Origin: a virus
DNA length: 64,000 nucleotides
Strand: one strand, 5' to 3'
IMG/VR virus record: IMGVR_UViG_3300031669_000001
Span: 1 to 64,000 of that record
In this document: positions 8,097-60,318 of the stretch, piece after piece
Position numbering within the stretch: position 1 is the first letter of the stretch
How the letters are laid out: every line of letters starts with the position of its first letter
Translations under genes and position numbers: made by a program
The notes under the pieces: generated by a model
Told to the model about the DNA's origin: nothing
The model's input: the letters and a program-made list of their open reading frames with translations, nothing else
The model's database searches: none

Positions 8097-8239
8097 GATT
8101 TTCCTTTTATTTCCTGAATTGGATAAATTACTCCATAGTTTCCACCGGTCTTCTTGCAGACCACCCACTTGAATTGAACTGGGTGACAGCATTTGTCTGC
8201 AAGAGGCACAGCCAAAATATTCTTTCGTTCTTCGCTCAT
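8093..8239 (-). CDS. hypothetical 48-aa protein (not in ORF track)
   Basis: MSEERKNILAVPLADKCCHPVQFKW... with ATGA overlaps at both ends. Confidence 0.45.
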   Translation of the reverse strand: MSEERKNILAVPLADKCCHPVQFKWVVCKKTGGNYGVIYPIQEIKGKS

Positions 8240-16610: not shown

Positions 16611-16638
16611 TGATAATCTCCTGTTTTCCAATAAGGTA

Positions 16639-26602: not shown

Positions 26603-26699
26603 TGCGGCTTTTCAAAAGTTTGAAGACAACCTTTTCATCAGCATGATACTCAGTATCGATACCGATGAACGGGAGGTCGTAGGGGATGTTCTTATTCAC
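26603..26699 (-). other. 5' segment of the DnaE-like gene in a different frame (needs a +1 shift at the A4 run 26609..26612)
   Basis: The GTG 26699 frame gives MNKNIPYDLPFIGIDTEYHADEKVVFKLLK. This aligns by eye with PDFDVDFCMEKRDQVIEHV, the catalytic-Asp region of DnaE. Confidence 0.45.
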
Positions 26700-26705
26700 G
26701 AGATG

Positions 26706-26734
26706 ATTATAACATAGTCGAGAATGTAAGTAAA
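26706..26734 (-). promoter_or_regulatory. early sigma70-like phage promoter
   Basis: -35 TTTACT, 17-nt spacer, -10 TATAAT. GTG 26699 lies only 6 nt after the -10. Confidence 0.6.
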
Positions 26735-26762
26735 CATTCTAGACGTACAGGAGACGGAGAAT

Positions 26763-35814: not shown

Positions 35815-36513
35815 TCAGATTCCTAATGCCAGAGCTATTTCCCGAACGTTCTTTACAACCTCAGGGGACCGCTCTAACTTCTCAGACCAGTATGTGATGC
35901 CAATGTTCTTCATCAAGGCAGCCCTTTCACTCTCATGAAGAGTACCTATCCAATCTTTGAAGCTCCTGGAGCAGAATAGAAGCCATGGAGATAGACGACG
36001 CTGTTGGATGAGTTCAGTTATCTCTCCGCTAGTGAACTTTGAGAACACCTCAGAAGGTTGAACTTCAAGACCCTCAGATAGCGCCAAGATGGTCTCAATA
36101 GCAATGTTAACCTGCTCGTAAGGATCTGACTTCTTGTCACTGTACTCGAGGAAGATTTGATAGGCTTCATTCCGCTTCCATAGAGAAGGAGCTATCTTCT
36201 GAGCCAACATTAACTCGATATACTTCTGAGGATCTGGGATGCCTGTCTCACGACACCATTCAGCAAATTTGAAGAATGAGGTATAGTAAGAAGATGAGAT
36301 GAAGCCTTCAGCTGCTGGAGGTTTTCTACGCTGCTTCTCCAACCAAACTTTGTACAGCCCATAAGCTTGTTGTCCTATCACGGTTTGTATCTCACGAGAG
36401 CGAACCATCGAGGTACACTCATGCTTCATGAACGTTCGTTCATTGAAGAACTTCTTTTTGCAAAACTTACAATCGTATAGGGGTATGCTACTCATTTTGG
36501 TCGTCAGGATCAT
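35815..36513 (-). CDS. C2H2-like zinc-finger protein
   Basis: YDCKFCKKKFFNERTFMKHEC. The start may be 36495. Confidence 0.6.
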   Translation of the reverse strand: MILTTKMSSIPLYDCKFCKKKFFNERTFMKHECTSMVRSREIQTVIGQQAYGLYKVWLEKQRRKPPAAEGFISSSYYTSFFKFAEWCRETGIPDPQKYIELMLAQKIAPSLWKRNEAYQIFLEYSDKKSDPYEQVNIAIETILALSEGLEVQPSEVFSKFTSGEITELIQQRRLSPWLLFCSRSFKDWIGTLHESERAALMKNIGITYWSEKLERSPEVVKNVREIALALGI

Positions 36514-36676
36514 TATTTGGGATTATATCGAGACACCAGCTCTCAAAATTATTTAGGACATTTGAATAACCATCTGCCATGTCAGTAATGAATTGAGTGA
36601 CAGTTGCAATTATAGCAACAATCAAAAGAGATATGGCTAGGAATGGAAAGGCTACCCAGAATAGTTTACGTTTCAT
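36488..36676 (-). CDS. small membrane protein
   Basis: 62 aa with an N-terminal TM helix. Confidence 0.5.
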   Translation of the reverse strand: MKRKLFWVAFPFLAISLLIVAIIATVTQFITDMADGYSNVLNNFESWCLDIIPNNDPDDQNE

Positions 36677-36685
36677 GTCATATTA

Positions 36686-37096
36686 TTATCGAGATGGAAC
36701 GGGAAGAAACTGCCAATATGCAGGCAGAAGGGAATTTTCTTTTGCATCCCTTACCAGAAACTTAGAGTGAACCGTACCAGGGGAGAAGAATTCTTTAACG
36801 CAGTCTTCTGCAACATTAGGATCAAAGTACTTACAGCTGAAGACGTCGATGTAAGCTTCTCTGGAAATTTCCATGAAGTGACCTGTGATGTTGCTAGTGG
36901 AGATCAGTTGAACTAAACTGTAACCAACCTTTGGATCACCTTCACACATCATCACGATGGTAGGTTCTCCAACAGCAACCATGTCAATTCGCTTAACAAG
37001 TTCCTTTACAAAGTTGTAAATGTTATCGTAGCTGGAAATTTTTTCAAGATTGCAATCACCGCAGTCCAAAAGTATGTGCCATCCAAAAGTTTTCAT
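36686..37096 (-). CDS. S-adenosylmethionine decarboxylase-like pyruvoyl enzyme (SpeH/SpeD class 1 fold)
   Basis: MKTFGWHILLDCGDC, LISTSNITGH (position of the ES self-cleavage site plus the downstream His), IDVFSCKYFDPNVA. Confidence 0.6.
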   Translation of the reverse strand: MKTFGWHILLDCGDCNLEKISSYDNIYNFVKELVKRIDMVAVGEPTIVMMCEGDPKVGYSLVQLISTSNITGHFMEISREAYIDVFSCKYFDPNVAEDCVKEFFSPGTVHSKFLVRDAKENSLLPAYWQFLPVPSR

Positions 37097-37692
37097 AAAA
37101 TGCTCCTCTGCCTAGGTTTACAGTTGACACCATGCCAACGGTTAAAATTTGCTTGTCCGCCAATACTTTTAAGACATTTTGGACAAATTATTTTCTTTTT
37201 TGGTTTACTCAAGTTTGCTTTATGTTCATTTGATTTAGGAATTCCTTTACATGTTACTAAAGTTCCATCTTTACTCTTGCGTAAACGTGTTTCACTTATC
37301 TTCTTACCTACTCCAGGTCTTTTCTTACCTAAAAGTTGATTTAATCTTTTTCTTTGATGTTCATTCGTTTGAATTTTTCCAAGCGCATGACCAGGTTTAA
37401 AATCTCCACCATCTAAACCATTTTCAGGTATTAGATTCAACCAACGATCAGATTTAACAATATCTTGTTGTTGTGAAAAGAGGAATGCTATTCGTGTGCA
37501 TTCATCTTTGTCAGTGAACAATTTATACCACAAAGTTTCAACATGCTCAACACCATGACGTTTTATATGACGTCTCCAATGAATACCAGATCCTAAATAT
37601 TTGATAGGATTTTTTCCTGTGGTCTTACCAAAGTAACATTTGCCAGTAATGGCATGTTGCTTTATGTAGAGATAAGTCGCTGGAAACAGAAT
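37093..37692 (-). CDS. GIY-YIG-like homing endonuclease lacking a canonical start codon
   Basis: The frame is open from directly after the CYTH TAA (ILFPATYLYIKQH...CYFGKT...). There is no in-frame ATG, GTG or TTG before 37533. Paralog of 27128..27667. Confidence 0.5.
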   Translation of the reverse strand: MLFPATYLYIKQHAITGKCYFGKTTGKNPIKYLGSGIHWRRHIKRHGVEHVETLWYKLFTDKDECTRIAFLFSQQQDIVKSDRWLNLIPENGLDGGDFKPGHALGKIQTNEHQRKRLNQLLGKKRPGVGKKISETRLRKSKDGTLVTCKGIPKSNEHKANLSKPKKKIICPKCLKSIGGQANFNRWHGVNCKPRQRSIL

Positions 37693-38214
37693 TTATTTTC
37701 CTAGTACGTTCGGGTCAAACTCAAACGGCCAAGGACACTTTGATAGACTTGCATTGCTGTATCGATGGTCGTTGCTAACTTCACCAGCGATCCACATCGG
37801 AAGGATTACTTCCTGATCTTCAGAAGCCAACTCTATCTCAGCGATGATCAAGCCTTTGTTGTTGGTCCTGAATCGATCTACTTCCCAAAGCTGTCCATGT
37901 TGATCAGGGATGATGTGACGAACCTTCTCGATGATCTTTCCTTCATTACAGAAGTTAGTTAGCAGCGCGCTGGCTACATCAAAGTCAATTTGAGTCTCAA
38001 TCTCAACACGCTTGATCCCAACTGATTTCCCCTTGACGGTAAGGAAAGCGTAGATGTCGTTGTCTCCAGTAAGCTCTTCAACAAGACGAACTCTGATCGT
38101 CTTCGCTGGATCAGTAGACAAGAAGCCTTGCGTGATCTTCTCGATCCTAATTGCTTCAGCCCATGGAACATCAGACGTAGTCAAGAACTTTCTTTCTATC
38201 TCAAACATTTGCAT
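37693..38214 (-). CDS. CYTH-domain triphosphate tunnel metalloenzyme
   Basis: N-terminal FEIERKFL (ExExK) and alternating charged beta-strand pattern. Confidence 0.7.
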   Translation of the reverse strand: MQMFEIERKFLTTSDVPWAEAIRIEKITQGFLSTDPAKTIRVRLVEELTGDNDIYAFLTVKGKSVGIKRVEIETQIDFDVASALLTNFCNEGKIIEKVRHIIPDQHGQLWEVDRFRTNNKGLIIAEIELASEDQEVILPMWIAGEVSNDHRYSNASLSKCPWPFEFDPNVLGK

Positions 38215-38611
38215 CTCCTAATAACCACACGTAAGTCGGTCTCAAGTTCTCAACAAACTTGTACACCTGCTTGTTTGACGGGTCAAATAACTCTTCACCA
38301 TCCCAATAAATCATGTGCTCTCCACCCCCATAATTCAAACTTACAACTTGAATGAGAGCCTTGCGTTTCCAGATTAGAGCTTGCACATATTTCTTGTCAA
38401 GATTTTGTGTCCATATAGACAGCGCATTTTGACCTTCAATGAAACCTGCCATCTTCAAAGCTTCTTTCAGCGTGCTGTCGTAGCAACCTTTGGCGAGTTC
38501 TATCTTCTTACGGAATGCAGGCTTGAACATTGAACTGTAAGGTCTTCCCGTCGCCATTGCAAGTGATGCCAATACACAATCAGATTCACCTTTCTGCTTT
38601 ACAATCTTCAT
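38201..38611 (-). CDS. C39-like papain-fold cysteine peptidase
   Basis: GESDCVLASLAMATG (catalytic Cys context) and GGEHMIYWDG..DPS (His/Asp). Confidence 0.5.
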   Translation of the reverse strand: MKIVKQKGESDCVLASLAMATGRPYSSMFKPAFRKKIELAKGCYDSTLKEALKMAGFIEGQNALSIWTQNLDKKYVQALIWKRKALIQVVSLNYGGGEHMIYWDGEELFDPSNKQVYKFVENLRPTYVWLLGDANV

Positions 38612-39003
38612 GCTAGTAACCTGTTCACCGCGATTTCTGCTTCTGCCATACTTTTTACCTGGACATCACTATGATGCAGCAGCCAAGGACTTAGTGGTTT
38701 CCCGCTGATGTCAATGACGACGACAGGTTTGCCGAGTGTATGTTTCGCATAGAAAACTTCCATTGAAGTTCCCACGGATGGCTTTTCATAAAACACAACG
38801 ATAAGATCGGAATTGTTGATGTCTTCGATATCTCCATCAACGATTTCTTTTGCTATGCCTGGCTCTAATTCCCTACCGCGATAATCACGATTCATTGGAT
38901 CTATACATTCATAGTTCCAAGTATTCTTGATAAGATCTCTCCAGTTTGTAGCTTCAAAATCAGTGCAACCGTTTATCGGACCGCATAAGTATATCTTCTT
39001 CAT
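38608..39003 (-). CDS. nucleoside 2-deoxyribosyltransferase-like protein
   Basis: KIYLCGPI ... SVGTSMEVFYA ... GKPVVVI. Confidence 0.6.
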   Translation of the reverse strand: MKKIYLCGPINGCTDFEATNWRDLIKNTWNYECIDPMNRDYRGRELEPGIAKEIVDGDIEDINNSDLIVVFYEKPSVGTSMEVFYAKHTLGKPVVVIDISGKPLSPWLLHHSDVQVKSMAEAEIAVNRLLA

Positions 39004-39467
39004 GATGTTACTTCCTTCTTCAATAGTTTAAGTTCATCTTTTTGGAGCCCGTGAGCCTCACCTAGTTCCATGATTTCATCTGCTGAGAACAATCTGACTG
39101 TGTCTTCTGCTTCCTTTAGAGACATGTGATAGTGTTCTGCTATCAACTCCACAGATTTCTTACTCTTCTTTGTTCCACCTGTCTTGTAGTTAATCCAAGT
39201 GTAGCGCTTCTTATCTCCAGATGAACACACTGTCAACAGCTTCAAGAATAGTTCCTTGTGTTCTGGTAAACTGAAGACCGCTAGGTTGACAACCTCATTC
39301 AAGAAGATTATCTGTCTTTGATCAGTAGTTCCAGCCATCCACCTCATGGTAACAAGTGGGGAAAACTCTTTCTTCTGATCATCGCTAAGCGAATCCCATA
39401 GCTTGTAGTTCTTCTTGTCAATTTCACCTAACAGCATGAAAATGTCAAGAGCTCTTTCTTTAACCAT
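39000..39467 (-). CDS. clamp-loader small subunit (T4 gp62-like)
   Basis: Position downstream of the gp44-like gene. Shows the by-eye gp62 pattern (GDKKRYTWINYK compared with RGKRYGKWAKL). Confidence 0.5.
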   Translation of the reverse strand: MVKERALDIFMLLGEIDKKNYKLWDSLSDDQKKEFSPLVTMRWMAGTTDQRQIIFLNEVVNLAVFSLPEHKELFLKLLTVCSSGDKKRYTWINYKTGGTKKSKKSVELIAEHYHMSLKEAEDTVRLFSADEIMELGEAHGLQKDELKLLKKEVTS

Positions 39468-39651
39468 CTATCTTGCACCTAACTTTTGCTACGCGAATAT
39501 CTCTGTGTAGATTCTCGATTCGTTCGAGCAGCTCAAGCTCACGAGACCTTGGAACCATCTCTATGTCGTCTGAGTGTTCACCGTTGGTCAACACATATTC
39601 ACCTTGTACTTCACGCACAAATATTTTATTCTTCATCATCATCATCGTCAT
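39460..39651 (-). CDS. hypothetical protein
   Basis: 63-aa ORF. Confidence 0.45.
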   Translation of the reverse strand: MTMMMMKNKIFVREVQGEYVLTNGEHSDDIEMVPRSRELELLERIENLHRDIRVAKVRCKIDG

Positions 39652-39713
39652 CTGGTCCCAAAAATAAAACTGCTGTTAAAAACATTGCTAGCACCCAAAA
39701 AGCTGGATTCACA

Positions 39714-40652
39714 TCATTCTCCTATTGCGTTGGACAACTTGATACATGTGGCTTCAAAGTTAAGGTGTGGAATCGCGACGAGCGCATGTTTGTAAACCCC
39801 ATCAAGAATGATACAGAGAGCTTGCTCATACGCATTTCTATCAGAGACGTACTTTGGGTGCTTGCCAATGTTGCGATATAAAAACTCGTAAACTTCAGTG
39901 ATCTGTTCTGCTGTACATTGCTCTGTTACGAGCTTGCGAATGTCTCTCAGCTTTCCTTCAAGGATGAAGTCGAGCAGCTTGAACTGATAGTCACCGCCTT
40001 CTGAATCATGAACTGGATTTCCAAGGACACCATTCGTCGTGTTCAACTGCATGTTGTTGATCATCTTGCGGATGTCTGGATAAGCCTGATCTACATACTT
40101 GTCGACTATCTCCGGATCAAATTCTACACCTTCGATTGTGAGAATTTCAAACATTCGCATGAGAACGTCATCACGACTTGGTGCCTTGAATCGCAGTTGC
40201 TGCATCCTTGATTTGATGGCGGGGATGATCTTATTTTCATAGTTGCAAGTGCAGATGAAGCGACATGTATCCGCGTTCTCTTCGAGGACTGCACGTAACA
40301 TGCCTTGAGCTGCTGGTGACATGTAGTCAAACTCTTCTAGCTTGACGACTTTGAACTTTCCAATAGGGTAGGTGCTTGCGAAGCTGAGGATTGTATCACG
40401 GATGTAATCAATGCCGGTTTTGTCAGACGCGTTGATCCGCATGACGTCAGCTTCATCGACACCCATCTCGTTGATTAGAATCTCTGCAAGAGTTGTCTTA
40501 CCTGAACCTTGAATGCCTGTTAAAAGCAGGTGAGGAATCTCACCGCTTCCAACTATACGTTCGATCTGTTCTTTTTGCTTGTCACTTTGAAAAACGTAAC
40601 CGCTTAATGTGCTTGGACGATGAGCTTCAAACCATAACTTTTTGACTGCCAT
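39714..40652 (-). CDS. clamp-loader ATPase (T4 gp44 / RFC small-subunit-like)
   Basis: LWFEAHRP, GIQGSGKTT Walker A, VKLEEFD Walker B, SRMQQLRF (SRC-type). Start at 40652 (GGAG SD). Confidence 0.85.
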   Translation of the reverse strand: MAVKKLWFEAHRPSTLSGYVFQSDKQKEQIERIVGSGEIPHLLLTGIQGSGKTTLAEILINEMGVDEADVMRINASDKTGIDYIRDTILSFASTYPIGKFKVVKLEEFDYMSPAAQGMLRAVLEENADTCRFICTCNYENKIIPAIKSRMQQLRFKAPSRDDVLMRMFEILTIEGVEFDPEIVDKYVDQAYPDIRKMINNMQLNTTNGVLGNPVHDSEGGDYQFKLLDFILEGKLRDIRKLVTEQCTAEQITEVYEFLYRNIGKHPKYVSDRNAYEQALCIILDGVYKHALVAIPHLNFEATCIKLSNAIGE

Positions 40653-40677
40653 ACTAAACTCCAATGATTAGATGGCT

Positions 40678-40706
40678 ATTATAATTCTATTGACGCTACA
40701 AGAACA
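40678..40706 (-). promoter_or_regulatory. early promoter (weaker -35)
   Basis: -35 TGTTCT, 17-nt spacer, -10 TATAAT. Confidence 0.45.
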
Positions 40707-42071
40707 TTATTGGTACAAAGATTTTTTGGTTGATGTAGATTCAGCGACAGAGAATAGAGCTTCTGGCATGTGAATCTTAATGTCCTCTAATGAGCTCTTG
40801 AGAGGTTGTTCTACTATCAAATCGGCTTGAGGAGAACCGGAATAATTGATATCGCCGTTGATTTCAGTAACAGGAATTGCTGGAGTGTAATCTTGAACCA
40901 TCTCTACTAAGACGCCTGCTGTATCTATTTCATACTCATCATCTTCAGGCTTCTCGCCAGTATCTATGTCGTCATAAACCAAAGACATCAATTCACGTTC
41001 TTCCTCTGTCAAAGGCTCTTCTTTAGGAGTTGGAATTTCAATAACGTGATCTGCCCAACCGATGGATTGTGGAGTTACCATCGTAACCTTTTCAGGTATT
41101 ACCTCGCCTTCGTCATCGACAGATACTACCTCAAATGGAAACTCTTCTTTGAATTCTGGACTGAGAGCTTCCGTAAATTCTTGTGCAACAACCTGCTCAG
41201 TCGGCGGTGGACTTTCTTCAGCTTCAGTTGGAATGTATATCTCACCTCGCTTTGAGATAATATCATCGTCATCTTTGTGCGACCATGAAGAATCTGGCAG
41301 CGGAAATTGAACGGGAGGTTCTTCATCGTTAGCCTCGTGTCTTAGCTTAACCAAGAAGTTACCAGCTAACAACAATCCCGTAGCCAATGGATCGAAGACG
41401 AAGATGAGGATCATGATGACCCACTTGCTCGCTTCTTCTATCGAGATGTTGAATGCTTTTGCGACGTAGATGATTGGGCCTGCGTGAACGTTCTGATCGA
41501 TGTTCTCGCTTTGAACTTTGAGAATATCAGCCGTCAACTCATCGTTGCGCTTGTTGATCGTGTTTAGACGAGATCTGATTCTCTCTTGTTCAGGTTTAAA
41601 GGAATAGATCAGACGCTGACGACCTCTAATGTAGTTGCTTGGAAGCTGCGCTACCTGCTTATCCATGTCAGCTTGTTCTGTCTTCAATGAATCTCTCTCA
41701 GCGATCAGAGATGCCTGTTCGTGTTGATAAGATTCTACCTTGAGAGTGACCTCCATGACAGGTTGAACAGCTTTTTGAAACGCTCCAGACAGATATCCAA
41801 ACGCACCAACCGACGTGATCGTCATGAGAACGATAACTGCTGCAAGCATGTAGTACTTGAACTTTGACTTAATTCGATTCCAATATTGATAGAGGAAAGA
41901 AACTGTAACGACCTTCGCGATGTCTAGGATCACCGCCATCGTAAGAATTACAGGATCACCTGCAAACAACGCCCCCAAGCCAAACACTGAGATGTAAGTC
42001 CCAATGGACTCCATCCCAAAAGCGTTTGCAAAAATCGTGAAGATGAAAAGTTTGCTAGGCTTGAGCTTCAT
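40707..42071 (-). CDS. membrane protein with coiled coil and acidic C-terminal region
   Basis: 454 aa with several N-terminal TM helices and an E/D/P-rich tail. Confidence 0.65.
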   Translation of the reverse strand: MKLKPSKLFIFTIFANAFGMESIGTYISVFGLGALFAGDPVILTMAVILDIAKVVTVSFLYQYWNRIKSKFKYYMLAAVIVLMTITSVGAFGYLSGAFQKAVQPVMEVTLKVESYQHEQASLIAERDSLKTEQADMDKQVAQLPSNYIRGRQRLIYSFKPEQERIRSRLNTINKRNDELTADILKVQSENIDQNVHAGPIIYVAKAFNISIEEASKWVIMILIFVFDPLATGLLLAGNFLVKLRHEANDEEPPVQFPLPDSSWSHKDDDDIISKRGEIYIPTEAEESPPPTEQVVAQEFTEALSPEFKEEFPFEVVSVDDEGEVIPEKVTMVTPQSIGWADHVIEIPTPKEEPLTEEERELMSLVYDDIDTGEKPEDDEYEIDTAGVLVEMVQDYTPAIPVTEINGDINYSGSPQADLIVEQPLKSSLEDIKIHMPEALFSVAESTSTKKSLYQ

Positions 42072-42385
42072 CAGTAAGTTTCACCAGGTTCATCGCTGAC
42101 ACCGATGATCTTGTCTTCATCAGTCTTCCAGTAACGAGCATCACCTATGTAAAAACCGAAGGTCCACTTACCAGGCTCGATCAGAATGAAGTCACCAACG
42201 TTTACCTCTGTAACATCTGGACCAACGAACAAGGCTTCACCCCAACGAGGCATCAGCGTTTGATTGCCGTCGCCTGATGTAACAAGGATTCCTGAAGCTG
42301 CTTTGTTTACGAATCGGGTTTGAGTGACATCTTCGGTGAACTTGAAGATGATGTTACTTTGGATCGCTTCTATCTGCTGTGTCAT
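42071..42385 (-). CDS. GroES/Cpn10-like co-chaperonin (T4 gp31 analogue)
   Basis: SGILVTSGD...GEALFVGPDV..VNVGDFILIE fits the Cpn10 pattern. Confidence 0.5.
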   Translation of the reverse strand: MTQQIEAIQSNIIFKFTEDVTQTRFVNKAASGILVTSGDGNQTLMPRWGEALFVGPDVTEVNVGDFILIEPGKWTFGFYIGDARYWKTDEDKIIGVSDEPGETY

Positions 42386-42800
42386 TTATTTCTTCTTTCG
42401 TATAGTTTGGTGTTGTGGGTAACGGGTTAACTGAGAGAATCGCGCTGTAAGAATCTTCAATTCCATTAGGGTGTAAGCCACAGGGTTCACGACGGTACGT
42501 TACATCCCAAGTTATAGATTCAACGTTGACAGTTTCAAAGGTATAAGGGTTAATAATGTCTCTGTATTCAGGCTTTTCATTTCTACGAGTTGCGATAAAT
42601 GTTGAAGTGCCGCGAGACATCTCGTCTCCACCTATAACTCTATGACAGATCACAGTGTGAACGGCTGGATCCTGATAAGCTCCATAGATGACTTCGCCTT
42701 CACATAAGTTAAACACTCTGACGCCAGGAATCGTGAGTTCAAGCTCATGTTTCCTTGAATTGATCTTCAATGTCTTATCTTTGTGTTTGAGCATCATCAT
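42354..42800 (-). CDS. hypothetical protein
   Basis: 148-aa ORF. Confidence 0.6.
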   Translation of the reverse strand: MMMLKHKDKTLKINSRKHELELTIPGVRVFNLCEGEVIYGAYQDPAVHTVICHRVIGGDEMSRGTSTFIATRRNEKPEYRDIINPYTFETVNVESITWDVTYRREPCGLHPNGIEDSYSAILSVNPLPTTPNYTKEEINDTADRSDPK

Positions 42801-42801
42801 G

Positions 42802-43062
42802 CTATTCCTGATAATAATCTTTGATCTCTTTAGTAGTCATAGGCTTTTTAGAGAAAACTATACCATGAGTATCTGAACCTTTTGTCATCGGTAAGTCATA
42901 CACAAAAAGTCCTAACTTCTTTAGAATTTTCTTCAGCTCTTTTGCAGTTTCATCGCTCAAATCCCGATGATCAGCCAAGAGCAATTGATGAGTAACTACT
43001 TCTTCTATCAAAAATGATTTGAATAGCATTTTATTTTTTTCCATAATGAGATGATCCGCCAA
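42802..43062 (-). CDS. hypothetical protein
   Basis: 86-aa ORF. Confidence 0.5.
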   Translation of the reverse strand: MADHLIMEKNKMLFKSFLIEEVVTHQLLLADHRDLSDETAKELKKILKKLGLFVYDLPMTKGSDTHGIVFSKKPMTTKEIKDYYQE

Positions 43063-43414
43063 TGCGAACGCCTAGAAACAGACCCATAGCTTTCCAGTGT
43101 GGAGTACCGGTTGCAATTGCAGCTTCTCTCAACACACAATCACACTTGTAGCGAGAAAATGGTGCTGTTGAATAGACGTAATCGTGCAGCGTTGCAGCTT
43201 CTGATGCGATGTCACCAAAGATGGAGAAAAATAGCGCGGGCCATCTTGGCACAGATGCGAAGTCTGTGACGTAACCAACAGGAACTGTAAGAGTACCAAC
43301 TCCCGTGATATCAGATTTATAAACGAGAGGCGCTGTCAACGACCATGTGCCACGACCTTGTGCTGCGCTTTGATCTACGAGTTCAACTTCTAACTTTGAT
43401 TGGAATGATGCCAT
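43031..43414 (-). CDS. DUF1353-like protein
   Basis: VPVGYVTDFASVPRW...LHDYVY. Start at 43414 (AAGGAGG SD). Confidence 0.5.
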   Translation of the reverse strand: MASFQSKLEVELVDQSAAQGRGTWSLTAPLVYKSDITGVGTLTVPVGYVTDFASVPRWPALFFSIFGDIASEAATLHDYVYSTAPFSRYKCDCVLREAAIATGTPHWKAMGLFLGVRIGGSSHYGKK

Positions 43415-43424
43415 GTTTTCCTCC

Positions 43425-44060
43425 TTAGATGTGTGCAAGCTTTTTAAGAGCTGCAAGTTTTCTGTCATATTTACTAGCCCATGACGTGACGCTTTTGATA
43501 ACCTTTTTGATAGCAGAAACTATTCCAGCTTTCAAGTCACCAATCAAACCTTCGTTCACTTTAGCTTTGACAGATAAAGCTGGAGACTTGTCTTCCTGCT
43601 TGGTGATCGTAGTGTAAGCTGCGGCGATCTCATCAACCTTCGCTTGAAGCTCGTCTGGGATCAGCTTTGCGAGTTCTTCAGCGATGGCTTTGTAGTCAAC
43701 GACAATCTTATCATCTTGCTTTGACTTTTTGGAAACCGTGAGAGTGAATGAAACGGTGTCTATCACTCGCGTAAGCACTATGTCCTCAGCGGCGAAGAGG
43801 TCTTCAACCTTCTCCTTGATGTCTGCGTTCAATTCTTTCTTCTTCTCACCCATAACCTTGATGGCTTTATCAAGACGATCGTAACGAGCTGCAAGCTTGG
43901 TCAACACGCCTGATTCATTGCCGTTGAGTTCGACGATGACGCGATCAAGCTGTTTCTTAACGAGTTTTTCTGTGTAAGTTAGATCTTCACGGCGCTTACG
44001 ATTTTCATCAGCTTCAGTGAGAATCAGGTGTTCTTTAAGGGTTAAATTATTGGGTGTCAT
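43425..44060 (-). CDS. hypothetical coiled-coil protein
   Basis: 211-aa ORF. Confidence 0.65.
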   Translation of the reverse strand: MTPNNLTLKEHLILTEADENRKRREDLTYTEKLVKKQLDRVIVELNGNESGVLTKLAARYDRLDKAIKVMGEKKKELNADIKEKVEDLFAAEDIVLTRVIDTVSFTLTVSKKSKQDDKIVVDYKAIAEELAKLIPDELQAKVDEIAAAYTTITKQEDKSPALSVKAKVNEGLIGDLKAGIVSAIKKVIKSVTSWASKYDRKLAALKKLAHI

Positions 44061-44349
44061 TTACTATGCTTCCTTGTACGTTCTCAAATGGTCCACCATG
44101 TTCTACTATAAGACCGGATACTGATGGTGGTATGCTGATTCTTGCGCCGTGTGCTATGTTTGGTGCGTTAAGAATTTCTATGCCCTTGTAATTCTCTGTT
44201 GCAGGTGGAGTTATAATTCCACCGTGTACTACTGTAGGATCTTCATTATAAGATGCTGTCACTGTCTCAAAGACGTAAGAGTCATTTGAACCTGGCGGTA
44301 CTCCAATTTTCTTTATAGGTCCACCATAATTTGTAGGTCTCATTGACAT
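44047..44349 (-). CDS. HGGP-repeat protein
   Basis: Contains YGGPIK, VHGGII and EHGGPF repeats. Confidence 0.55.
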   Translation of the reverse strand: MSMRPTNYGGPIKKIGVPPGSNDSYVFETVTASYNEDPTVVHGGIITPPATENYKGIEILNAPNIAHGARISIPPSVSGLIVEHGGPFENVQGSIVNDTQ

Positions 44350-44358
44350 CCAGATACC

Positions 44359-44616
44359 TCACATTTCATTATCAACATCACCATAGGTTCCTCTAAAGTT
44401 CAGAGGTAGTTGAATCGGTCCGCCGTGCACTGGTGGTACGTTTGTAGTCTTCTCGTCGATGTTAGAAGTAGCTTCATACGGCAAGATAGCTGAAGGGGTT
44501 TTGATGATCCCACCAGCAGTCACATCGTATTGTGGCGGTATAGTCACGTCTACAGGTTTGATTGGCCCACCGTGAACTGGGTGGTGATTATCGAATTGTG
44601 GACGCTGAGCAGCCAT
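44359..44616 (-). CDS. HGGP-repeat protein
   Basis: Contains PVHGGPIKP and PVHGGPIQL repeats. Confidence 0.55.
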   Translation of the reverse strand: MAAQRPQFDNHHPVHGGPIKPVDVTIPPQYDVTAGGIIKTPSAILPYEATSNIDEKTTNVPPVHGGPIQLPLNFRGTYGDVDNEM

Positions 44617-44867
44617 TACTTCTTCTTTTTCGCTGGAGCTTTGACAGGAATTTCCAACTCGACAGCTTCCTGTTCTGTAAAATCAATCACTTCTGTAATC
44701 TCAGTTGTAGCTGCTTTTGATCCGCGAGCTTTTCCTTCTTTTGAATCGATGAATTCTTTACGACGAGCAACCTCGATGTTCATCGGGGCCTGTGCAAGCT
44801 GTTGCTTGATGATAATCGTGTCGAAGTCTAACTGCACTCCACGTGCTGTTCTGACTATTCTTGGCAT
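44616..44867 (-). CDS. hypothetical protein
   Basis: 83-aa ORF. Confidence 0.55.
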   Translation of the reverse strand: MPRIVRTARGVQLDFDTIIIKQQLAQAPMNIEVARRKEFIDSKEGKARGSKAATTEITEVIDFTEQEAVELEIPVKAPAKKKK

Positions 44868-44878
44868 GACATATTCTC

Positions 44879-45439
44879 CTATAATTTTATGAAGTCTGTG
44901 ATCTCGATGTCGTACTCGACGGGATCGACTTCATGTAGACCGAGAAGATACAGTAAGTAGCTTGAACATGAACTTCCACGTCCTACTCCCCAGATGACTT
45001 TCTTTTCCTTCATCACGTCTATCACGTAGATGAGAGTTCTTAGAACATCGTCTAGCTTAAGCTGCTTGAACATCCAGATTTCTGTAGAGAGGCGTTCAAC
45101 ACGTTTCTCATAGAGATCATCTTTCTCAATCCGATCGACCAACCCAATGAGGTAATCTTCGAGATTCAGATCATATTTATAGCGATCGGGCAGCTTCCAT
45201 TCTGGAGGGAACTTAACGTTGCATTCTGTCTTAATCTTCAGCTCATGGTCGCTGATTGAGTTATAGGCGAGGATTTCAGGAGTGATTGATGTGACATATA
45301 ACTTCTCGATACCGTGCGTCTCAGATGACATCCTGAGTATGTACGAGACGATTGAATCAGGGTCTACAGAAATTGTACCATCTGGCCAGAGCAGATGGTC
45401 TTCAACTACTATCGGAAGGAGCTCACTTGAGGGCTTCAT
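44879..45439 (-). CDS. DNA polymerase III alpha (DnaE)-like N-terminal fragment
   Basis: WGVGRGSSCSSYLLYLLGLHEVDPVEYD..TDFIKL aligns by eye with [35 protein letters not shown]. The ORF stops just before the catalytic Asp motif. There is no PHP domain. Confidence 0.6.
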   Translation of the reverse strand: MKPSSELLPIVVEDHLLWPDGTISVDPDSIVSYILRMSSETHGIEKLYVTSITPEILAYNSISDHELKIKTECNVKFPPEWKLPDRYKYDLNLEDYLIGLVDRIEKDDLYEKRVERLSTEIWMFKQLKLDDVLRTLIYVIDVMKEKKVIWGVGRGSSCSSYLLYLLGLHEVDPVEYDIEITDFIKL

Positions 45440-46505
45440 CGACGAGTCTCTTTAACCAGCCAAGGTCAGCTACAACGTCAGTTTGAGGTGGATTGAGCAT
45501 GTCCCATTGTTGGATCTGTTGTAGTGCAGTGCGAAGCTTCATAACTTCAGAAGATTCACCCTTTCTGAATTTTGTAACTGCTTCCACAAATTCTTTATCC
45601 GTCTTTGCTTTTAGACGGGTGCGTGGCAACTTGTCTGCTAATTCTAAGATGAGTGGAAGCTTTGCAAGCTTCATTCTCCACTCAAGTGGAATTCCATCTT
45701 CGCCGTAAAATGCTCCTGCAACTTGACCGCAAATAGCAGCTGTGGTGTCTGCATCATCACCGAGATTAGCAGCCTTTAGGATCGCATCTCGAAAATTGTC
45801 TGTCGTGTAGAAACACCAAAGAGCAGCTTCAAGGCTTTGAATAACGTAACCAGATCCCACGATCTCTTTTTCTGACTTGTCGACATAGGTTCCATCTGCA
45901 ATGTCTTGAATGCTCTTTGACATAAAGCTGTCATGTTGACAGAATAGAATTTCTTCTTTGTTCAAATAGTCAGAGTGTAGAGCGTTGAAGATGATAGCTC
46001 CTAACAACTTACAAGCTTCAATGCACTGAGGTGCAGAGTGAGTAGTCCTAGAGCTCAACCCTGAATTGAACACCGCTAAAGTTCTATTGTCATGAAAGAA
46101 CATTGGAACAGGTGCGAGACGCATGATGCTACCATTGCCTAGAGAGTAATCATCGTGCCACGCAACTTCTGAACCGATTTCTTGAAAGTCTCTAAGAGCT
46201 CTCCGAGTAGTTCCACCAATGTCAAAGCAGTGACCGTTGCTGCTCATGTAACCGAGATTGAGCCAATCCACATACTTTTGAAGCTGATCGACAGCATCCA
46301 TTCCACCTTTGTCTACCAAGCTCTGAGCTAAACAGAGAGCCATCGAGGTGTCATCTGTCCATTGACCAGGCTCGAGGTTAAATGCACCACCGCCTACCAT
46401 GTCAGTGACAGGTTCAAATTCACCTCGAGTCTGAAACTCAACAGTTGTACCTACTGCATCGCCGCATGCAAGTCCTAACAACGCACCTCGAAATTTATCG
46501 TTCAT
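45423..46505 (-). CDS. ADP-ribosylglycohydrolase (ARH/DraG family)
   Basis: FRGALLGLACGDAVGT, WTDDTSMALC, FDIGGTTRRAL, GNGSIMR, GDDADTTAAICGQVAGAFYG. Confidence 0.85.
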   Translation of the reverse strand: MNDKFRGALLGLACGDAVGTTVEFQTRGEFEPVTDMVGGGAFNLEPGQWTDDTSMALCLAQSLVDKGGMDAVDQLQKYVDWLNLGYMSSNGHCFDIGGTTRRALRDFQEIGSEVAWHDDYSLGNGSIMRLAPVPMFFHDNRTLAVFNSGLSSRTTHSAPQCIEACKLLGAIIFNALHSDYLNKEEILFCQHDSFMSKSIQDIADGTYVDKSEKEIVGSGYVIQSLEAALWCFYTTDNFRDAILKAANLGDDADTTAAICGQVAGAFYGEDGIPLEWRMKLAKLPLILELADKLPRTRLKAKTDKEFVEAVTKFRKGESSEVMKLRTALQQIQQWDMLNPPQTDVVADLGWLKRLVDEALK

Positions 46506-46597
46506 TCTTTTGCCTTTATTATGTACAGATAGCACAGCCCTAAAGCTACAGCGATAACAGAACCGCCTAAAGCTCCACTTAGAGCAGCAACTGTCAT
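46502..46597 (-). CDS. 31-aa hydrophobic peptide
   Basis: MTVAALSGALGGSVIAVALGLCYLYIIKAKE with an ATGA overlap with the ARH start. Confidence 0.35.
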   Translation of the reverse strand: MTVAALSGALGGSVIAVALGLCYLYIIKAKE

Positions 46598-46611
46598 ATC
46601 TTCAAATGTTA

Positions 46612-47436
46612 TCATTCTGTTATGTCTTTCAATTCTTTATTCCATCTTTGAAACTTGTCATGCACCTGCAACTTTACTAGCCAATTGTTGAAGTACTCGT
46701 CTATCTCTCTAGAACGAGGATGAGTCTCTGCGTTGTAAATCAAAAAGTCCTTGTAGTTCTGAACCTTGTCAGCTATCAACATTTTCTCAATGCCAAGAAG
46801 AGGACTCATCTCGATGTCGTGAGTGCTTCTTATCTTTCTATGAGATAGATAGCCATTCGCAATGTTGCGATATTCCATGGCTAACGCAACGGCTATAGGA
46901 TTACACTTCACTACGACTCTATCAAAGTTGACTGCAAGATCCATGCTATTTTGAACTAACGGGTGAATGCAATAAGCTTTCATCGCCGTCATTGAAGCGT
47001 CTATCTGCATCATGATGTAGAGACCTTCATCTATGTGATTCATCTTCAACACACCGCTTCTCTTCGCACAATCATTTCCATAAAAGTCCTCAACCATCTT
47101 GTACTCAACGGTATCAAAGATCGATCTAGCAACTTGATGGGGTATGTCGTGCTTCTCAAGAAATGGAATGATGTTGCAATCTTCCATAGTGAGAACTGGA
47201 CAATCTGCCTGCTTCAACAACTTTACACCATGTCCATGACCGCGCATCCTAAATGGAAGGTAGCCAGAACAGAATTTTTCCTCGTCTTTGGTAAAGAACG
47301 TGAGGTAACCATGCTCAGTAGGTTCTACAGTCTTAGACCATTTAAACCCAAGTGACGCCAGCTGCAACGCACGAGTCTTGTAATATTGGACTATGTCCAC
47401 AAGATCATTTGCATCGTGGTTGAGACGGTATGTCAT
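46612..47436 (-). CDS. hypothetical protein
   Basis: 274-aa ORF. GHGHGVKLLK may be GNAT-like, but the function is unresolved. Confidence 0.65.
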   Translation of the reverse strand: MTYRLNHDANDLVDIVQYYKTRALQLASLGFKWSKTVEPTEHGYLTFFTKDEEKFCSGYLPFRMRGHGHGVKLLKQADCPVLTMEDCNIIPFLEKHDIPHQVARSIFDTVEYKMVEDFYGNDCAKRSGVLKMNHIDEGLYIMMQIDASMTAMKAYCIHPLVQNSMDLAVNFDRVVVKCNPIAVALAMEYRNIANGYLSHRKIRSTHDIEMSPLLGIEKMLIADKVQNYKDFLIYNAETHPRSREIDEYFNNWLVKLQVHDKFQRWNKELKDITE

Positions 47437-47984
47437 GTTGGTTTGTACTCTACTCCATTGATGATAAGGGGTTTGTAAACGTCGTTGAGGATGAGTTGTT
47501 CTACCGTTAGGCCGTGAGCGTCATGAAGCTTAAACACCTTAACTCCAGCTAACATGAGAAGTGAAAGTCCATTGTCATCATGTCTATCGTAAAATTCACG
47601 GAAGTAAACTTCCTCAATTCCAGCAGCGATGATAAGCTTTGCGCATGGCAGACAAGGTGATACTTGTTGTACCAGCGCGGCACCTACGGTTTCGATGCCG
47701 TGTTTCGCGCACTGTGCTACAACGTTCATCTCTCCATGAAGCTCAAACCGTTCAGAGAATTGTCTGTGAAGGTCTCTGCCTTCGGGAGTCTTGACATCAA
47801 CGTTACAATTCTTAAAGAATCCTGAACAATGATTGAAGCCTGTTGGAACTCCATTCCAACCTGTCATGTTCACTCTACCATCTCTAACGAGTAAGGCAGC
47901 TACGTGAACTCTGGCGCAGGTTGATCGCTTGATGTACGCGTCGAGAATCTCAACACATGTTTGTAAGTCTGCTTGCTTTATCAT
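47433..47984 (-). CDS. dCMP deaminase
   Basis: HGEMN and PCLPCAKLI zinc-binding motifs, plus GWNGVPTG. Confidence 0.85.
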   Translation of the reverse strand: MIKQADLQTCVEILDAYIKRSTCARVHVAALLVRDGRVNMTGWNGVPTGFNHCSGFFKNCNVDVKTPEGRDLHRQFSERFELHGEMNVVAQCAKHGIETVGAALVQQVSPCLPCAKLIIAAGIEEVYFREFYDRHDDNGLSLLMLAGVKVFKLHDAHGLTVEQLILNDVYKPLIINGVEYKPT

Positions 47985-57536: not shown

Positions 57537-58823
57537 TTATTCGAAAGTGATCTGATCTATCTTGAAACTTTTAGATTTTGGTGAAATGTAGTGTGCAGAT
57601 GATTCTGTTGGTGTAAGCAACCAAACCCACTTTGTTGGAGCTTTAGGATTTACTGAGTCACCATAGCCATCTGTGATCACGACGACGCAGTCAGGGTAAC
57701 GACCTTGATCTTTCTGAAGCCTCAAGCATTCTTCCTCAATGATTCGAAAGCTCGTGCCGCCGCCGATTCTAACGTGATCTCCAGGTTTTACAGGCGTAAC
57801 GACCGTGTCGAAGATGTAGAGCCTAGTGTCAAATATCCTGCGTTCCTCATCGAACGCCAGAAAGACCTTCTGAAAAATTTCAATGTAAGGTAAGCAAGAT
57901 CCAGAGATGTCCATGAACACGGCTGTTAGGAGACGATCTCTTACAGGTCTTTCAACGGCATTTATGCCTGGAAGAGATGCTTTGCTGCTCCTAATCACGT
58001 CATCGAAGCGGCGACTGTCGTGAGTGAACGTCTCTACATCCTTCTCAACCTGCTTCATGCTTGTCTTTTTAAGCTTGCGAATGATGTGAGAAAAATTGAC
58101 CTTCAACTTCTTGATCTTCTCCGCGATGATGTGTTCAAGCACTCCGGCAACCTTGCCGGCCAACAGACCGCCTGAAGCGCTGAAGAATGGAGGCAAGCTC
58201 TTGATTATCTTTTCAATATCAGCGACATCCAAATCTTCAGCTAAGGTGGCGGCCATCTCTGCTCGAGCGTGCTTCTCGACTTCTGTCATCGTTCCATCAT
58301 CATGAACGTCCAAAGTAGATGGGCCTCCAGCGCCTGAACTCTTAGGTGGTTTCTTGATCAGCTCCTCGAGGTAGTAGGTGAAAGTTTCATTTCTCTTGAT
58401 GAGGATAGGGTTCTCAAAGCAAGTATCGATCCAGCAGTACTTCTTCCAATCTCTAAGGTCTTCACGATCGTAGTGGAAGAGGTCGACTATCATCTCATTG
58501 ATCGTGATGTCCTGAGCGATGTTGACTAACTCTGCAGTAGCGCCTGGAACGTTCATGCCGTCGCGGATGCCGTGATCGAGGATGACGTGCATGCACTCGT
58601 GACAAACTACAAACAACTTCTCCCTGAAGGTCAGCTTATCCCAAAATTCTTGGTTGAGCTTCATCTCCGCTTTACCTTTGCGAGGTAGCCAGACGGCAGC
58701 CGTTGGAACGCTGTCATCAAATACCACGTCAGAGAGCTCAAAGAAGGTGAAGAAGACCTTGTTATAGTCCTCTATCGAAGCTGCGATTTCCAGCTTATCC
58801 TCTGATGACATTGAACGTCTCAT
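57537..58823 (-). CDS. HExxH metallopeptidase-like domain fused to vWA-like domain (DUF2201-type)
   Basis: VVCHECMHVILDH carries HExxH. VFMDISGSC is a MIDAS-like DxSGS. ATGA-coupled to the upstream gene. Confidence 0.7.
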   Translation of the reverse strand: MRRSMSSEDKLEIAASIEDYNKVFFTFFELSDVVFDDSVPTAAVWLPRKGKAEMKLNQEFWDKLTFREKLFVVCHECMHVILDHGIRDGMNVPGATAELVNIAQDITINEMIVDLFHYDREDLRDWKKYCWIDTCFENPILIKRNETFTYYLEELIKKPPKSSGAGGPSTLDVHDDGTMTEVEKHARAEMAATLAEDLDVADIEKIIKSLPPFFSASGGLLAGKVAGVLEHIIAEKIKKLKVNFSHIIRKLKKTSMKQVEKDVETFTHDSRRFDDVIRSSKASLPGINAVERPVRDRLLTAVFMDISGSCLPYIEIFQKVFLAFDEERRIFDTRLYIFDTVVTPVKPGDHVRIGGGTSFRIIEEECLRLQKDQGRYPDCVVVITDGYGDSVNPKAPTKWVWLLTPTESSAHYISPKSKSFKIDQITFE

Positions 58824-59023
58824 GAATCAGGCCCACAATCAATTCGCCAGGGACACACTATCAAGCACGCAGTTGAGCAGTCATCTTCTCCGTGACAAGG
58901 CGGAGCTTTATCACCACGAAGTGATTTGATCTCCTCCAATAGCTTGAGTCTCTCAGGAGAGTTGTGAGCTCCTGTATTGCTCAAGAATGCCTCTTCGTCC
59001 AACAGGTCTTGTAAAATGCTCAT
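58820..59023 (-). CDS. small Cys-rich protein
   Basis: 67 aa. The C-terminus reads PPCHGEDDCSTACLIVCPWRIDCG. Confidence 0.5.
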   Translation of the reverse strand: MSILQDLLDEEAFLSNTGAHNSPERLKLLEEIKSLRGDKAPPCHGEDDCSTACLIVCPWRIDCGPDS

Positions 59024-60318
59024 AGAAAGTTCATGTCATCTACGATCTTGCGACTGTAGAGCTTCTCGTTGATGTAGTTCTTTTCTTTAGGTGTAAAGAA
59101 TCCGCCCACCTTAGCGATGATCTTGACGATCTCGTGGAAGTTTGTTTCTTTGCGAGCATCTTTTCCACCTATACCCCAGAAGATCCTGATCAAAGTCTTT
59201 TCCTGACAATTGAAAAGTACGTCTACACATCTATTTGCCAGCTTTGCTACGAGGTTGTGCTTTGTCGCGCTCAAGCCTCTGATGTCGTTTTCAAGTGAAC
59301 CACCATTCTTGTATAGCAGGTCAAGTCTAACGTTGTTTATGAGAGCTGCGGTACCTTGATTCCCCTTATCGTCTGGAAGTTTATTGATCAAATCTTCCAG
59401 AGAATTTACAACTTCAAAACCCTTCTGCCTAGCGTACACAAACTCAGTGAACGGTTCTACAAGCTCCTTAGGCATTTGCCTTCCATGCTTCTTGAAGAAG
59501 TCCACAGCTACTGGGTCGTTAGCTTTTACAAGGTCAAGCAGCTTCGTAGCGTTGTTTATGTCTGCGACGAACGCTCCCGCTTCCGCGTCATTCGTGACCT
59601 TCTTGATCTGCTCGTGGAACGGTAAGCTCTTCAGCATGCTTCGAAGAGCTGAGACATTTGATTCGGTAGGTAGGAAGTCCTCCAAGCGGCAACCATTTGC
59701 GTACGCTGCCGCTGCGTAGTCAACTCGGCGAGGAGACACCATTCTTTGAATGTCACCAGGCAAATCCTTCCACCATTGAATGAAGATCATCCCGGTGGTC
59801 GGGAATTTTGCGTTGAAGTAGTCCTCGTCTATCTTGTATGGAACTTTGATTGTAACCTGGAAGCGATCAAGTTGTGCGGGATCGATGTGATTGACTGAGT
59901 AGGTGTCGTCATCATCTTCTGGATTGATAGCTGCCCAGATAACTTTCAGATTGTTGAGCTTGTGTCCGTTGATTGACTTGAACTGAATCAGCTCCATGAC
60001 GGCGTTAATCACCTTGTCAGGTGCGCGGTTAAACTCGTCGAGCATGATCGCTTCTATCTCGTCGTTCTCACACCAAGCAGGCCTCACCAACTCAAGAGTT
60101 CGCTTGTTTACACCATCATCGATGACCTTAGGTACCCCTACAAAGTCAACCCAAGGATCGAGGGTACTTGCTGAGAAGTACTTCCAGCGATCGCCGTAAA
60201 GCTCAGTGAAAACTTCCTTAATGACGGTAGTCTTGCCGACACCGTGGAGCCCACTCAGGAGAACGTTATAGTTTAGGATAGCGTACTGTGTCAGCCTAGC
60301 TTTGTTGATGATTGCCAT
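59020..60318 (-). CDS. MoxR/AAA_5-type ATPase
   Basis: LLSGLHGVGKTT Walker A and AIMLDEFNRA Walker B. First gene after promoter 60346..60374. Confidence 0.8.
   Translation of the reverse strand: MAIINKARLTQYAILNYNVLLSGLHGVGKTTVIKEVFTELYGDRWKYFSASTLDPWVDFVGVPKVIDDGVNKRTLELVRPAWCENDEIEAIMLDEFNRAPDKVINAVMELIQFKSINGHKLNNLKVIWAAINPEDDDDTYSVNHIDPAQLDRFQVTIKVPYKIDEDYFNAKFPTTGMIFIQWWKDLPGDIQRMVSPRRVDYAAAAYANGCRLEDFLPTESNVSALRSMLKSLPFHEQIKKVTNDAEAGAFVADINNATKLLDLVKANDPVAVDFFKKHGRQMPKELVEPFTEFVYARQKGFEVVNSLEDLINKLPDDKGNQGTAALINNVRLDLLYKNGGSLENDIRGLSATKHNLVAKLANRCVDVLFNCQEKTLIRIFWGIGGKDARKETNFHEIVKIIAKVGGFFTPKEKNYINEKLYSRKIVDDMNFL

Follow-up and report, generated by a model that had tools for sequence, protein, structure and literature searches.

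The window, by which we mean the whole 64-kb stretch of DNA that was analysed, carries two non-adjacent genes on the same strand, 18.3 kb apart, whose products look like the two pieces of a minimal DNA polymerase III alpha subunit (mini Pol III; Table 1). The first gene, here called N, encodes a protein that ends in ...WGVGRGSSCSSYLLYLLGLHEVDPVEYDIEITDFIKL*, and the second, C, encodes one that begins with MDIDIDVVSS; each is present in one copy only within the window. Together the two proteins measure 378 aa, rather than the total of about 410 aa given in an earlier annotation made from the letters of this DNA (the sequence-only reading). That reading had rightly located the second piece about 18 kb away on the same strand, with HPCGLYF, KIDFLH, LIRPQK and FKKAHAVAYAL, all of which are carried by the C gene. 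It had drawn the boundaries of that gene too widely, as 26024..26699 instead of 26024..26602, and it had taken the peptide PFIGIDTEY for the counterpart of PDFDVDF in DnaE. The peptide is part of a 98-aa ORF (26403..26699) in a frame other than that of the C gene. This ORF overlaps the C-gene leader and the promoter-like site that lies in the leader, a sigma70-like TTTACT-17 nt-TATAAT with an upstream TG at 26734..26706 (10 of 12 matches in a promoter scan). Its sole Pfam match (E = 0.074) is below the cut-off, it has no PHROG match, and it is without a relative in 52 related loci. A programmed frameshift from this ORF into the C gene was considered and rejected on two grounds: the upstream ORF is not conserved, and the C homologues that were checked have their start at DIDIDV or about 8 residues from it at most.

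Table 1. Features of the window that belong to the two mini Pol III genes and to the conserved block between them.
Feature	Position	Strand	Basis
C subunit, mini Pol III alpha (192 aa)	26024..26602	minus	ORF
Leader/intergenic region 5′ of the C gene	26603..26762	minus	sequence and promoter scan
p232 (232 aa), N-terminal zinc finger (C15, C18, H31, C33)	35815..36513	minus	phrog_11058, 2.8e-49
p155 (155 aa), directly downstream of the clamp loader	39000..39467	minus	conserved order
RFC/gp44-like clamp-loader large subunit	39714..40664	minus	phrog_168, 5.2e-70; Pfam AAA, DNA_pol3_delta2, Gp44_lid
p454 (454 aa), N-terminal ~245 aa conserved	40707..42071	minus	alignment, gene order
p104 (104 aa)	42071..42385	minus	30 related loci, conserved order
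p83 (83 aa), immediately downstream of the N gene	44616..44867	minus	23 related loci
N subunit, mini Pol III alpha (186 aa)	44879..45439	minus	ORF

Profile searches and predicted structures, including the Foldseek comparison that the sequence-only reading had proposed as a check, place both fragments in the catalytic core of the Pol III alpha (C-family) polymerases. N matches Pfam PF07733 (DNA_pol3_alpha) at 1.1e-10, above the curated cut-off, over profile positions 13-94, and it matches phrog_11127 over its full length (2.6e-32). C matches phrog_11778 over its full length (1.4e-63) and the fingers family PF17657 at 0.0018, which is below the cut-off; both PHROGs carry the annotation “DNA polymerase”. 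For either piece, the match is well outside what chance would give. When aligned to E. coli DnaE (the MG1655 sequence), N covers residues 314-397 (hhalign 1.6e-06) with its end at the equivalent of residue ~394, so the DnaE palm segment that had been recognised in this gene stands, and C covers residues 549-641, 603-658 and 749-769 (hhalign and HMMER). The alignments of N and C to DnaE are collinear. A HMMER profile search of PDB sequences gives marginal values (E ~0.01), and its matches are all DnaE and again collinear. Relatives of N and C have to be sought at the protein level, as a megablast of the two regions against 50,697 phage records returned no match. Folded separately with AlphaFold2, the halves reach mean pLDDT values of 92.1 (N) and 92.9 (C). 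A Foldseek search of the PDB with the N model gives C-family polymerases as all of the top 10 matches, the best with a modest E of 5.5e-3 (5FKV), and the top 14 matches of the C model are all DnaE or PolC, the best with an equally modest 7.6e-4 (4IQJ). Among viral structures (the BFVD library), the top matches of the N model are Pol III alpha proteins. In the N model, the helical, NTP-binding region of the palm takes up residues ~67-186, and residues 1-66 fold into a small alpha/beta domain, with W18-x-D20-G21 invariant, that is without a DnaE counterpart and is lineage-specific.

The position of the split is informative. The end of N (F183-I-K-L186) aligns with E. coli F391-L-N393-P394 (hhalign), and C starts at the equivalent of residues 400-401, so that, as had been proposed, the division falls just before the catalytic DxD. 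The part of N homologous to DnaE is all helical in the model (helices 85-166), and the four strands of the palm all lie in the C model (E2-7, E20-26, E29-38 and E65-70). On these models the break lies in the loop equivalent to E. coli 394-400, with the helical part that binds the NTP on one side and the beta-sheet part that binds the metals on the other. It thus separates two sub-structures and leaves the sheet whole, which would explain why each half folds confidently alone. The split point is also shared by all 11 homologue pairs compared (ten metagenomic pairs, matched by the length of their contigs, and that of Ralstonia phage RsoM2USA): N ends no more than 5 residues past a DFI(K/R)-type motif, and C starts at DIDIDV or no more than about 8 residues before it, in every pair. 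The best-known case of a DnaE that comes from two distant genes is that of cyanobacterial dnaE-n and dnaE-c, where a split intein joins the halves post-translationally into a full-length chain, and this resemblance is what makes intein splicing worth weighing here. Against it, only about 2 residues are left unaligned at the N/C junction relative to E. coli DnaE, which leaves no room for intein halves of ~100 aa and ~35 aa; no Cys, Ser or Thr nucleophile stands at the junction (C starts M-D-I-D); and no intein Pfam domain was found. The collinear junction bears out the earlier remark that the break shows no intein signature, and on this alignment splicing can be regarded as refuted, with a probability close to nil. 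Unlike the cyanobacterial halves, which are broken elsewhere in the protein, those of the window are separated before the DxD and must stay separate subunits.

The catalytic residues can be assigned by comparison with E. coli DnaE, in which D401 and D403 were confirmed from the sequence in PDFDVDF and D555 in KFDFLG. The start of C, M1-D2-I-D4-I-D6, corresponds to E. coli P400-D401-F-D403-V-D405, and hhalign places C K65-I-D67 on E. coli K553-F-D555. By this alignment the catalytic triad is canonical, D2-x-D4(-x-D6) plus D67 (E. coli D401, D403 and D555), which replaces the atypical D-x-E plus E that had been described for it. Conservation was assessed in 121 aligned homologues per half, drawn from 1840 clusters (C) and at least 258 clusters (N). 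At least 90% of the C homologues have D2, D4, D6, H33 and G36, and all of them have D45, K65, D67, R134, P135, K137, F167, K168, H171 and Y175; R134-P135 and F167-K-K-x-H171...Y175 make up the reduced fingers. The N homologues show no variation at W150, G151, G153-R-G-S-S-C-S-S-Y161, H169 and D172, and at least 90% of them have V152. Residues 153-156 of N are the GRGS loop, which in DnaE holds the triphosphate of the incoming dNTP.

In other respects the mini enzyme has lost most of what surrounds this core, and the Pfam results and motif spacings agree with the earlier description of a protein without PHP, beta-binding and OB domains and with shortened fingers. First, the PHP domain is absent from N and C (no PF02811 match in Pfam). 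Second, the distance from the DxD to the His strand is 31 residues in C as against 110 in E. coli DnaE, which implies that the thumb is gone. The thumb of DnaE grips the primer-template duplex, and in the E. coli protein it reportedly spans residues 433-510. Third, the RP motif is separated from F-(N/K)-K-x-H by 34 residues (118 in E. coli DnaE), and only 25 residues follow the latter motif before the C-terminus (404 in E. coli DnaE). The end of C at residue 192 is equivalent to E. coli ~780, and the beta-clamp motif of E. coli (QADMF) lies at 920; by Pfam, lengths and motif spacing, the beta-binding motif, the OB fold and the tau-binding tail are all absent. Compared with a DnaE of ~1160 aa in one chain, the window thus has 378 aa in two chains, without PHP, thumb, clamp motif, OB or tau tail and with ~200 fingers residues missing. 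What it shares with DnaE and PolC (E. coli 2HNH and 5FKV, Taq 4IQJ) is the Pol-beta-type palm with its GRGS loop and its DxD + D triad and, in the fingers, the motifs RP and F-N/K-K-x-H...Y. Because the thumb is missing and much of the fingers has gone, efficient templated synthesis is not guaranteed by a sequence of this kind.

Both halves are widespread. C is represented by 1840 clusters at 90% identity, nearly all of ~190 aa, and by 431 representatives at 50% identity in an unfiltered profile search; N is represented by at least 258 clusters, nearly all of ~183 aa. Among cultured phages, N occurs in 91 records and C in 96, in the same host genera and in jumbo phages throughout; the carriers include RsoM2USA, XacN1, Xoo-sp13, 121Q, PBECO4 and Klebsiella, Erwinia and Pseudomonas phages. 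The sequence-only reading had named a lack of conservation, together with a complete conventional polymerase elsewhere, as a sign that these ORFs are pseudogene debris, here the remains of a disrupted dnaE. At first sight the short size and physical separation of the genes suit that idea. The conservation data refute it, and we give it practically no weight: the ORFs are intact, their homologues number in the hundreds to thousands and match them in length, the split point is fixed in 11 of 11 pairs, the predicted folds are confident, and the C gene has a promoter-like site of its own.

This architecture has been described before, in a comparative study of jumbo phages in which the phages of group 2.2 were found to carry a minimal split Pol III alpha (Iyer, Anantharaman, Krishnan, Burroughs & Aravind 2021, Viruses 13:63; PMC7824862). 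As described there, it consists of a ~180-aa NTP-binding protein and a ~190-aa Mg- and template-binding protein encoded by separate genes, with no other Pol III domains and in the company of a T4-like clamp loader, all as in the window; the two polymerase genes are called “distantly located”. The authors state that the split enzyme accompanies a family B polymerase, propose that it serves the synthesis of one strand or repair, and note a MoxR-type AAA+ ATPase for group 2.2. Examples are Ralstonia phage RsoM2USA (gp216/gp210), Xanthomonas phage XacN1 and coliphage 121Q, and the corresponding families are PHROGs 11127 and 11778. The window likewise carries a MoxR-type AAA+ ATPase, together with an ATP-dependent ligase. 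It differs from the group 2.2 phages in that its halves are only 39% (N) and 52% (C) identical to those of the nearest cultured phage, RsoM2USA, in which both are annotated as “hypothetical”, and in that the DNA between them has expanded to 18 kb. It is therefore another example of an architecture published in 2021 and not a discovery. Beyond the 2021 comparative paper, no experimental work on the split mini Pol III was found in the literature.

The sequence-only reading had also suggested looking for another replicative polymerase, and had seen the clamp loader as an odd partner for a relic of the C family. The gp44-type clamp loader itself is present as it had claimed. No family B polymerase was found in the window, where the largest ORF has 478 aa; the window makes up the first 64 kb of a metagenome contig of 274,244 bp. 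Relatives do have one: RaK2 carries PolB (gp100) and a T4-like replisome, and RsoM2USA carries an 808-aa DNA polymerase and an epsilon-like exonuclease. By analogy with these relatives, a family B polymerase would be expected in this phage lineage as well. With such a polymerase in the relatives, and with the two halves flanking the loader genes, the clamp loader no longer looks out of place.

That flanking arrangement is conserved. Among 52 related loci, the clamp loader is present in 44 and p155 also in 44; p454 occurs in 32 related loci and p104 in 30, and p83, where it occurs (23 loci), always lies directly after N. In the window, a GGAG overlaps the stop codon of the N gene. N is found on the strand of C and 3.7-9.6 kb upstream of it in 23 of 51 IMG/VR loci, and within 10 kb it is never adjacent to, fused to or downstream of C in any of the 51; in relatives, N-C gaps span 3.7-31 kb. 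A 200-aa gene directly upstream of C in one locus (L008) was considered as a possible adjacent N and rejected (hhalign E = 0.18), and this locus has no N within 10 kb of C. All 14 loci inspected, RsoM2USA included, show the order N-p83-(p211 in some)-p104-p454-clamp loader-p155-p232-C, the sole exception being a partial contig (L046) with no p454 match, and a dCMP deaminase precedes N in 9 of the 14. In compact relatives p232 ends a few bases before the start of C, and the core block adds up to ~4.1 kb, which is the minimal N-C gap. The window retains the dCMP deaminase (at 47433) and p83, p104, p454, the loader, p155 and p232 (Table 1); its extra DNA consists mostly of 9.2 kb between p232 and C. 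The two halves therefore flank a conserved clamp-loader block, which measures ~4 kb when compact and is expanded here, and they lie 18 kb apart because DNA has been inserted into it. In the searched passages of the 2021 paper (PMC7824862), a gene order in which N and C flank such a block was not found.

The other members of the block offer few clues to function. From its position, p155 is possibly a small clamp-loader subunit; it has no Pfam or PDB match. From its sequence pattern, p454 looks like a protein with hydrophobic segments and a coiled coil, and its only Pfam matches are weak coiled-coil ones. p232 has no informative match in PDB or Pfam. Both p232 and p454 were considered as the missing sliding clamp and rejected, p232 for its conserved C-C-H-C zinc finger and lack of a clamp match and p454 for its hydrophobic segments and coiled coil. 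Since the block also holds a probable membrane or coiled-coil protein (p454), the conserved order may reflect the history of the lineage and not one functional operon. The location of the halves around the clamp-loader genes, in conserved order, together with the lack of proofreading and processivity modules, also suits the idea that they are non-catalytic DnaE relics which act as structural, regulatory, or clamp- or clamp-loader-binding factors of a family B replisome. We consider this quite improbable, given that 90% or more of the 121 homologues per half have kept the three aspartates and the GRGS loop and that the catalytic residues are kept even in the distant fused forms described next.

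Unsplit forms, for which the sequence-only reading had recommended a comparative search, do exist and are rare. Three types were found. In the first (P0323, P0390 and P0391, 375-376 aa), N is followed by C with a 10-residue linker; hhalign matches the fusion to the N profile at 2.2e-20. The nearest relatives of these proteins are split C proteins (51-59% identity), and the P0323 type therefore looks like a secondary fusion. In the second (P0374, 336 aa), N is again followed by C, here without the extra N-terminal domain, and the gene overlaps one for a PF03090 Replicase. In the third (P0384, 398 aa), C comes first and is followed by a helical part with GKGSSSAS, an order that by sequence is a circular permutation; its gene overlaps one for an AAA_25 ATPase, and no relatives of it were found in IMG/VR. 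P0374 and P0384 each come from a single short contig and are provisional. None of the three types has lost the DxD, the K-x-D or the G-S loop. The permuted fusion was likewise not found in the searched passages of PMC7824862. The occurrence of natural fused and permuted versions argues that the two halves work together.

Near-identical distribution, conserved order, a fixed split point and the existence of fusions all point to N and C being partners. We accordingly favour, with a probability of roughly 70%, a reading of the sequences and models in which N and C are the subunits of one minimal C-family enzyme, a Pol III alpha-like nucleotidyl transferase with a Pol-beta fold. Of the three options that the sequence-only reading had left side by side, a two-subunit mini-polymerase fits best, because of catalytic conservation, near-identical distribution, gene order and fusions; decay products and a regulatory or clamp-binding relic are not supported. 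For such an enzyme we infer physical association of the halves, polymerase activity and a biological role. N would supply the helical subdomain, with the GRGS loop for the triphosphate, and C would supply the beta-sheet with the metal-binding D2, D4 and D67; the cut-down fingers of C would contact the template and the nucleotide. The active site would then form at the N/C interface when the two proteins associate non-covalently, and neither an intein nor splicing would take part in their assembly.

Whether such a complex would copy a template is a separate matter. The Pol-beta fold superfamily is functionally versatile, and N and C could form an active Pol-beta-fold nucleotidyl transferase that is not a templated polymerase: a terminal transferase or tailing enzyme, or in variants of the same idea a synthase that needs no primer, or an enzyme that makes a signal nucleotide or a modified nucleotide for use in phage-host conflict. 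The thumb and most of the modules that grip DNA have been lost and the metal and triphosphate sites strictly kept, as might be expected of an enzyme of this sort, and the window is rich in genes of nucleotide metabolism and conflict (an ADP-ribosylglycohydrolase gene that overlaps the start of N, the dCMP deaminase and an RlaP-like nucleotidyl transferase). We nevertheless judge it unlikely: the retained RP and F-K-K-x-H...Y align with the fingers of DnaE, the fused relatives adjoin Replicase and helicase-type ATPase genes, and a clamp loader is among the conserved neighbours.

If the two-subunit enzyme is a polymerase, it is probably not the main processive replicase, because PHP, thumb, clamp-binding and OB elements are absent and the lineage has a T4-type family B polymerase. 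Mini Pol III would probably be distributive and act beside the family B replisome, and its role is more likely to be short-patch synthesis (primer extension, gap filling or repair). A functional analogy, and only that, comes from Bacillus subtilis, where DnaE reportedly works beside PolC in a two-polymerase replisome, as a C-family enzyme whose task may be primer extension or gap filling next to a different main replicase. Unlike mini Pol III, the B. subtilis enzyme has its full length and binds to the clamp, and the role proposed for mini Pol III is speculative. A further proposal, which we put forward tentatively and hold to be possible though doubtful, is that the two pieces of mini Pol III make up a polymerase module sufficient in itself, whose partners are primases, helicases and the clamp loader. 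In jumbo phages this module may be a second synthesis apparatus next to the family B replicase, specialised for a task such as primer extension. In small unrelated replicons, a single-chain core, with its domains in either order, that is translationally coupled to a Replicase/primase-type or helicase-type ATPase gene could be the sole replicase. If this is true, no working C-family polymerase would be smaller than this core of ~300 residues, which would also offer a model of the ancestral form.

More generally, this type of enzyme could be the smallest natural C-family polymerase, with an active site shared by two polypeptides, and it bears on the evolution of bacterial replicases, on the reasons for which some phages retain a pair of unrelated polymerases, and on efforts to design polymerases that are split or minimal. 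The window adds no new principle; its gains are the canonical Asp triad, the finding that the “distant” genes flank a block, and the natural fused and permuted versions. The split architecture itself is already present in the PHROGs and JGI annotations.

Across related phage contigs, the two halves of the split mini Pol III alpha flank a collinear, same-strand block of genes that has been kept together. The order runs from an N half (bearing the GRGS region), which a dCMP deaminase gene can precede, through genes for proteins of 83 aa, 104 aa and about 400-450 aa, an RFC-like clamp loader, a 155-aa protein and a 232-aa zinc-finger protein to the C half (bearing the catalytic aspartates). In its compact form the block separates the two halves by about 4 kb, and the 18 kb between them in the window is that same interval widened by insertions. 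Two of the intervening proteins have recognizable features. The 232-aa protein, whose gene in compact relatives has the C polymerase gene directly downstream, contains numerous conserved aromatic residues and a zinc finger formed by the invariant C15, C18, H31 and C33. The 454-aa protein, whose gene stands between those of the clamp loader and the N half in every inspected relative except one, looks in its conserved part like hydrophobic segments on either side of a coiled coil.

Features of the window and single-chain mini polymerases of metagenome contigs
Feature	Location	Strand	Remarks
Calcineurin-like metallophosphoesterase	8236..9111	minus	directly downstream of adenylosuccinate-synthetase homologue
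Adenylosuccinate-synthetase homologue	9108..10367	minus	Pfam PF00709 1.8e-41; best PHROG phrog_1211 1.1e-66
ATP-dependent DNA ligase	15195..16631	minus	phrog_114 5.3e-78
Second Pol-beta-fold nucleotidyl transferase	21206..22390	minus	phrog_388 1.1e-58; weak RlaP RNA-repair match
Conserved block	35815..47984	minus	relatives: L001, L013-L059
232-aa protein	35815..36513	minus	phrog_11058
454-aa protein	40707..42071	minus	conservation restricted to N-terminal ~245 aa
ADP-ribosylglycohydrolase	45423..46535	minus	phrog_6572 2e-77
DUF2201 metallopeptidase-like + VWA protein	57537..58823	minus	adjoins MoxR-type ATPase gene
MoxR-type AAA+ ATPase	59020..60318	minus	AAA_3/AAA_5
P0323/P0390/P0391	contigs L002, L007		single chain, N then C
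P0374	L004 3171-4181		single chain, N then C; overlaps PF03090 Replicase gene
P0384	L003 871-2067		circularly permuted, C then N; overlaps AAA_25 ATPase gene

Translational coupling of the ADP-ribosylglycohydrolase and N polymerase genes is suggested by their overlap, the stop codon of the former falling 17 nt past the start of the latter. The break itself may not be peculiar to the mini polymerase. PHROG matches of the N half (44879-45439), together with the proteins P0403 and P0404, include further pieces of phage DnaE, 460-550 aa long, that comprise PHP and the N-terminal palm. Because the profiles of two of these PHROGs, phrog_13169 and phrog_7513, stop soon after the GRGS region, full-size DnaE genes of phages, too, may repeatedly be broken at the loop where the mini polymerase divides into N and C. 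Single-chain mini polymerases are rare in metagenomes: two types have the N-then-C order and one is circularly permuted, with P0374 and P0384 each coming from a single short contig.

The window corresponds to the initial ~64 kb of the metagenome contig k141_860407 (ENA ERZ27256847), which is 274,244 bp long. Nearly all genes in the window are encoded on the minus strand. Compared with 50,697 phage records, the window gave no nucleotide-level match. Among its other genes is a MoxR-type ATPase; a MoxR ATPase is also recorded for the group 2.2 jumbo phages, a published group with a split mini Pol III alpha, by Iyer et al. (2021; PMC7824862). The adenylosuccinate-synthetase homologue has the P-loop GDEGKG and its top PHROG is a PurZ-type family; the product is a candidate PurA-type or PurZ-type (2-aminoadenine pathway) enzyme.
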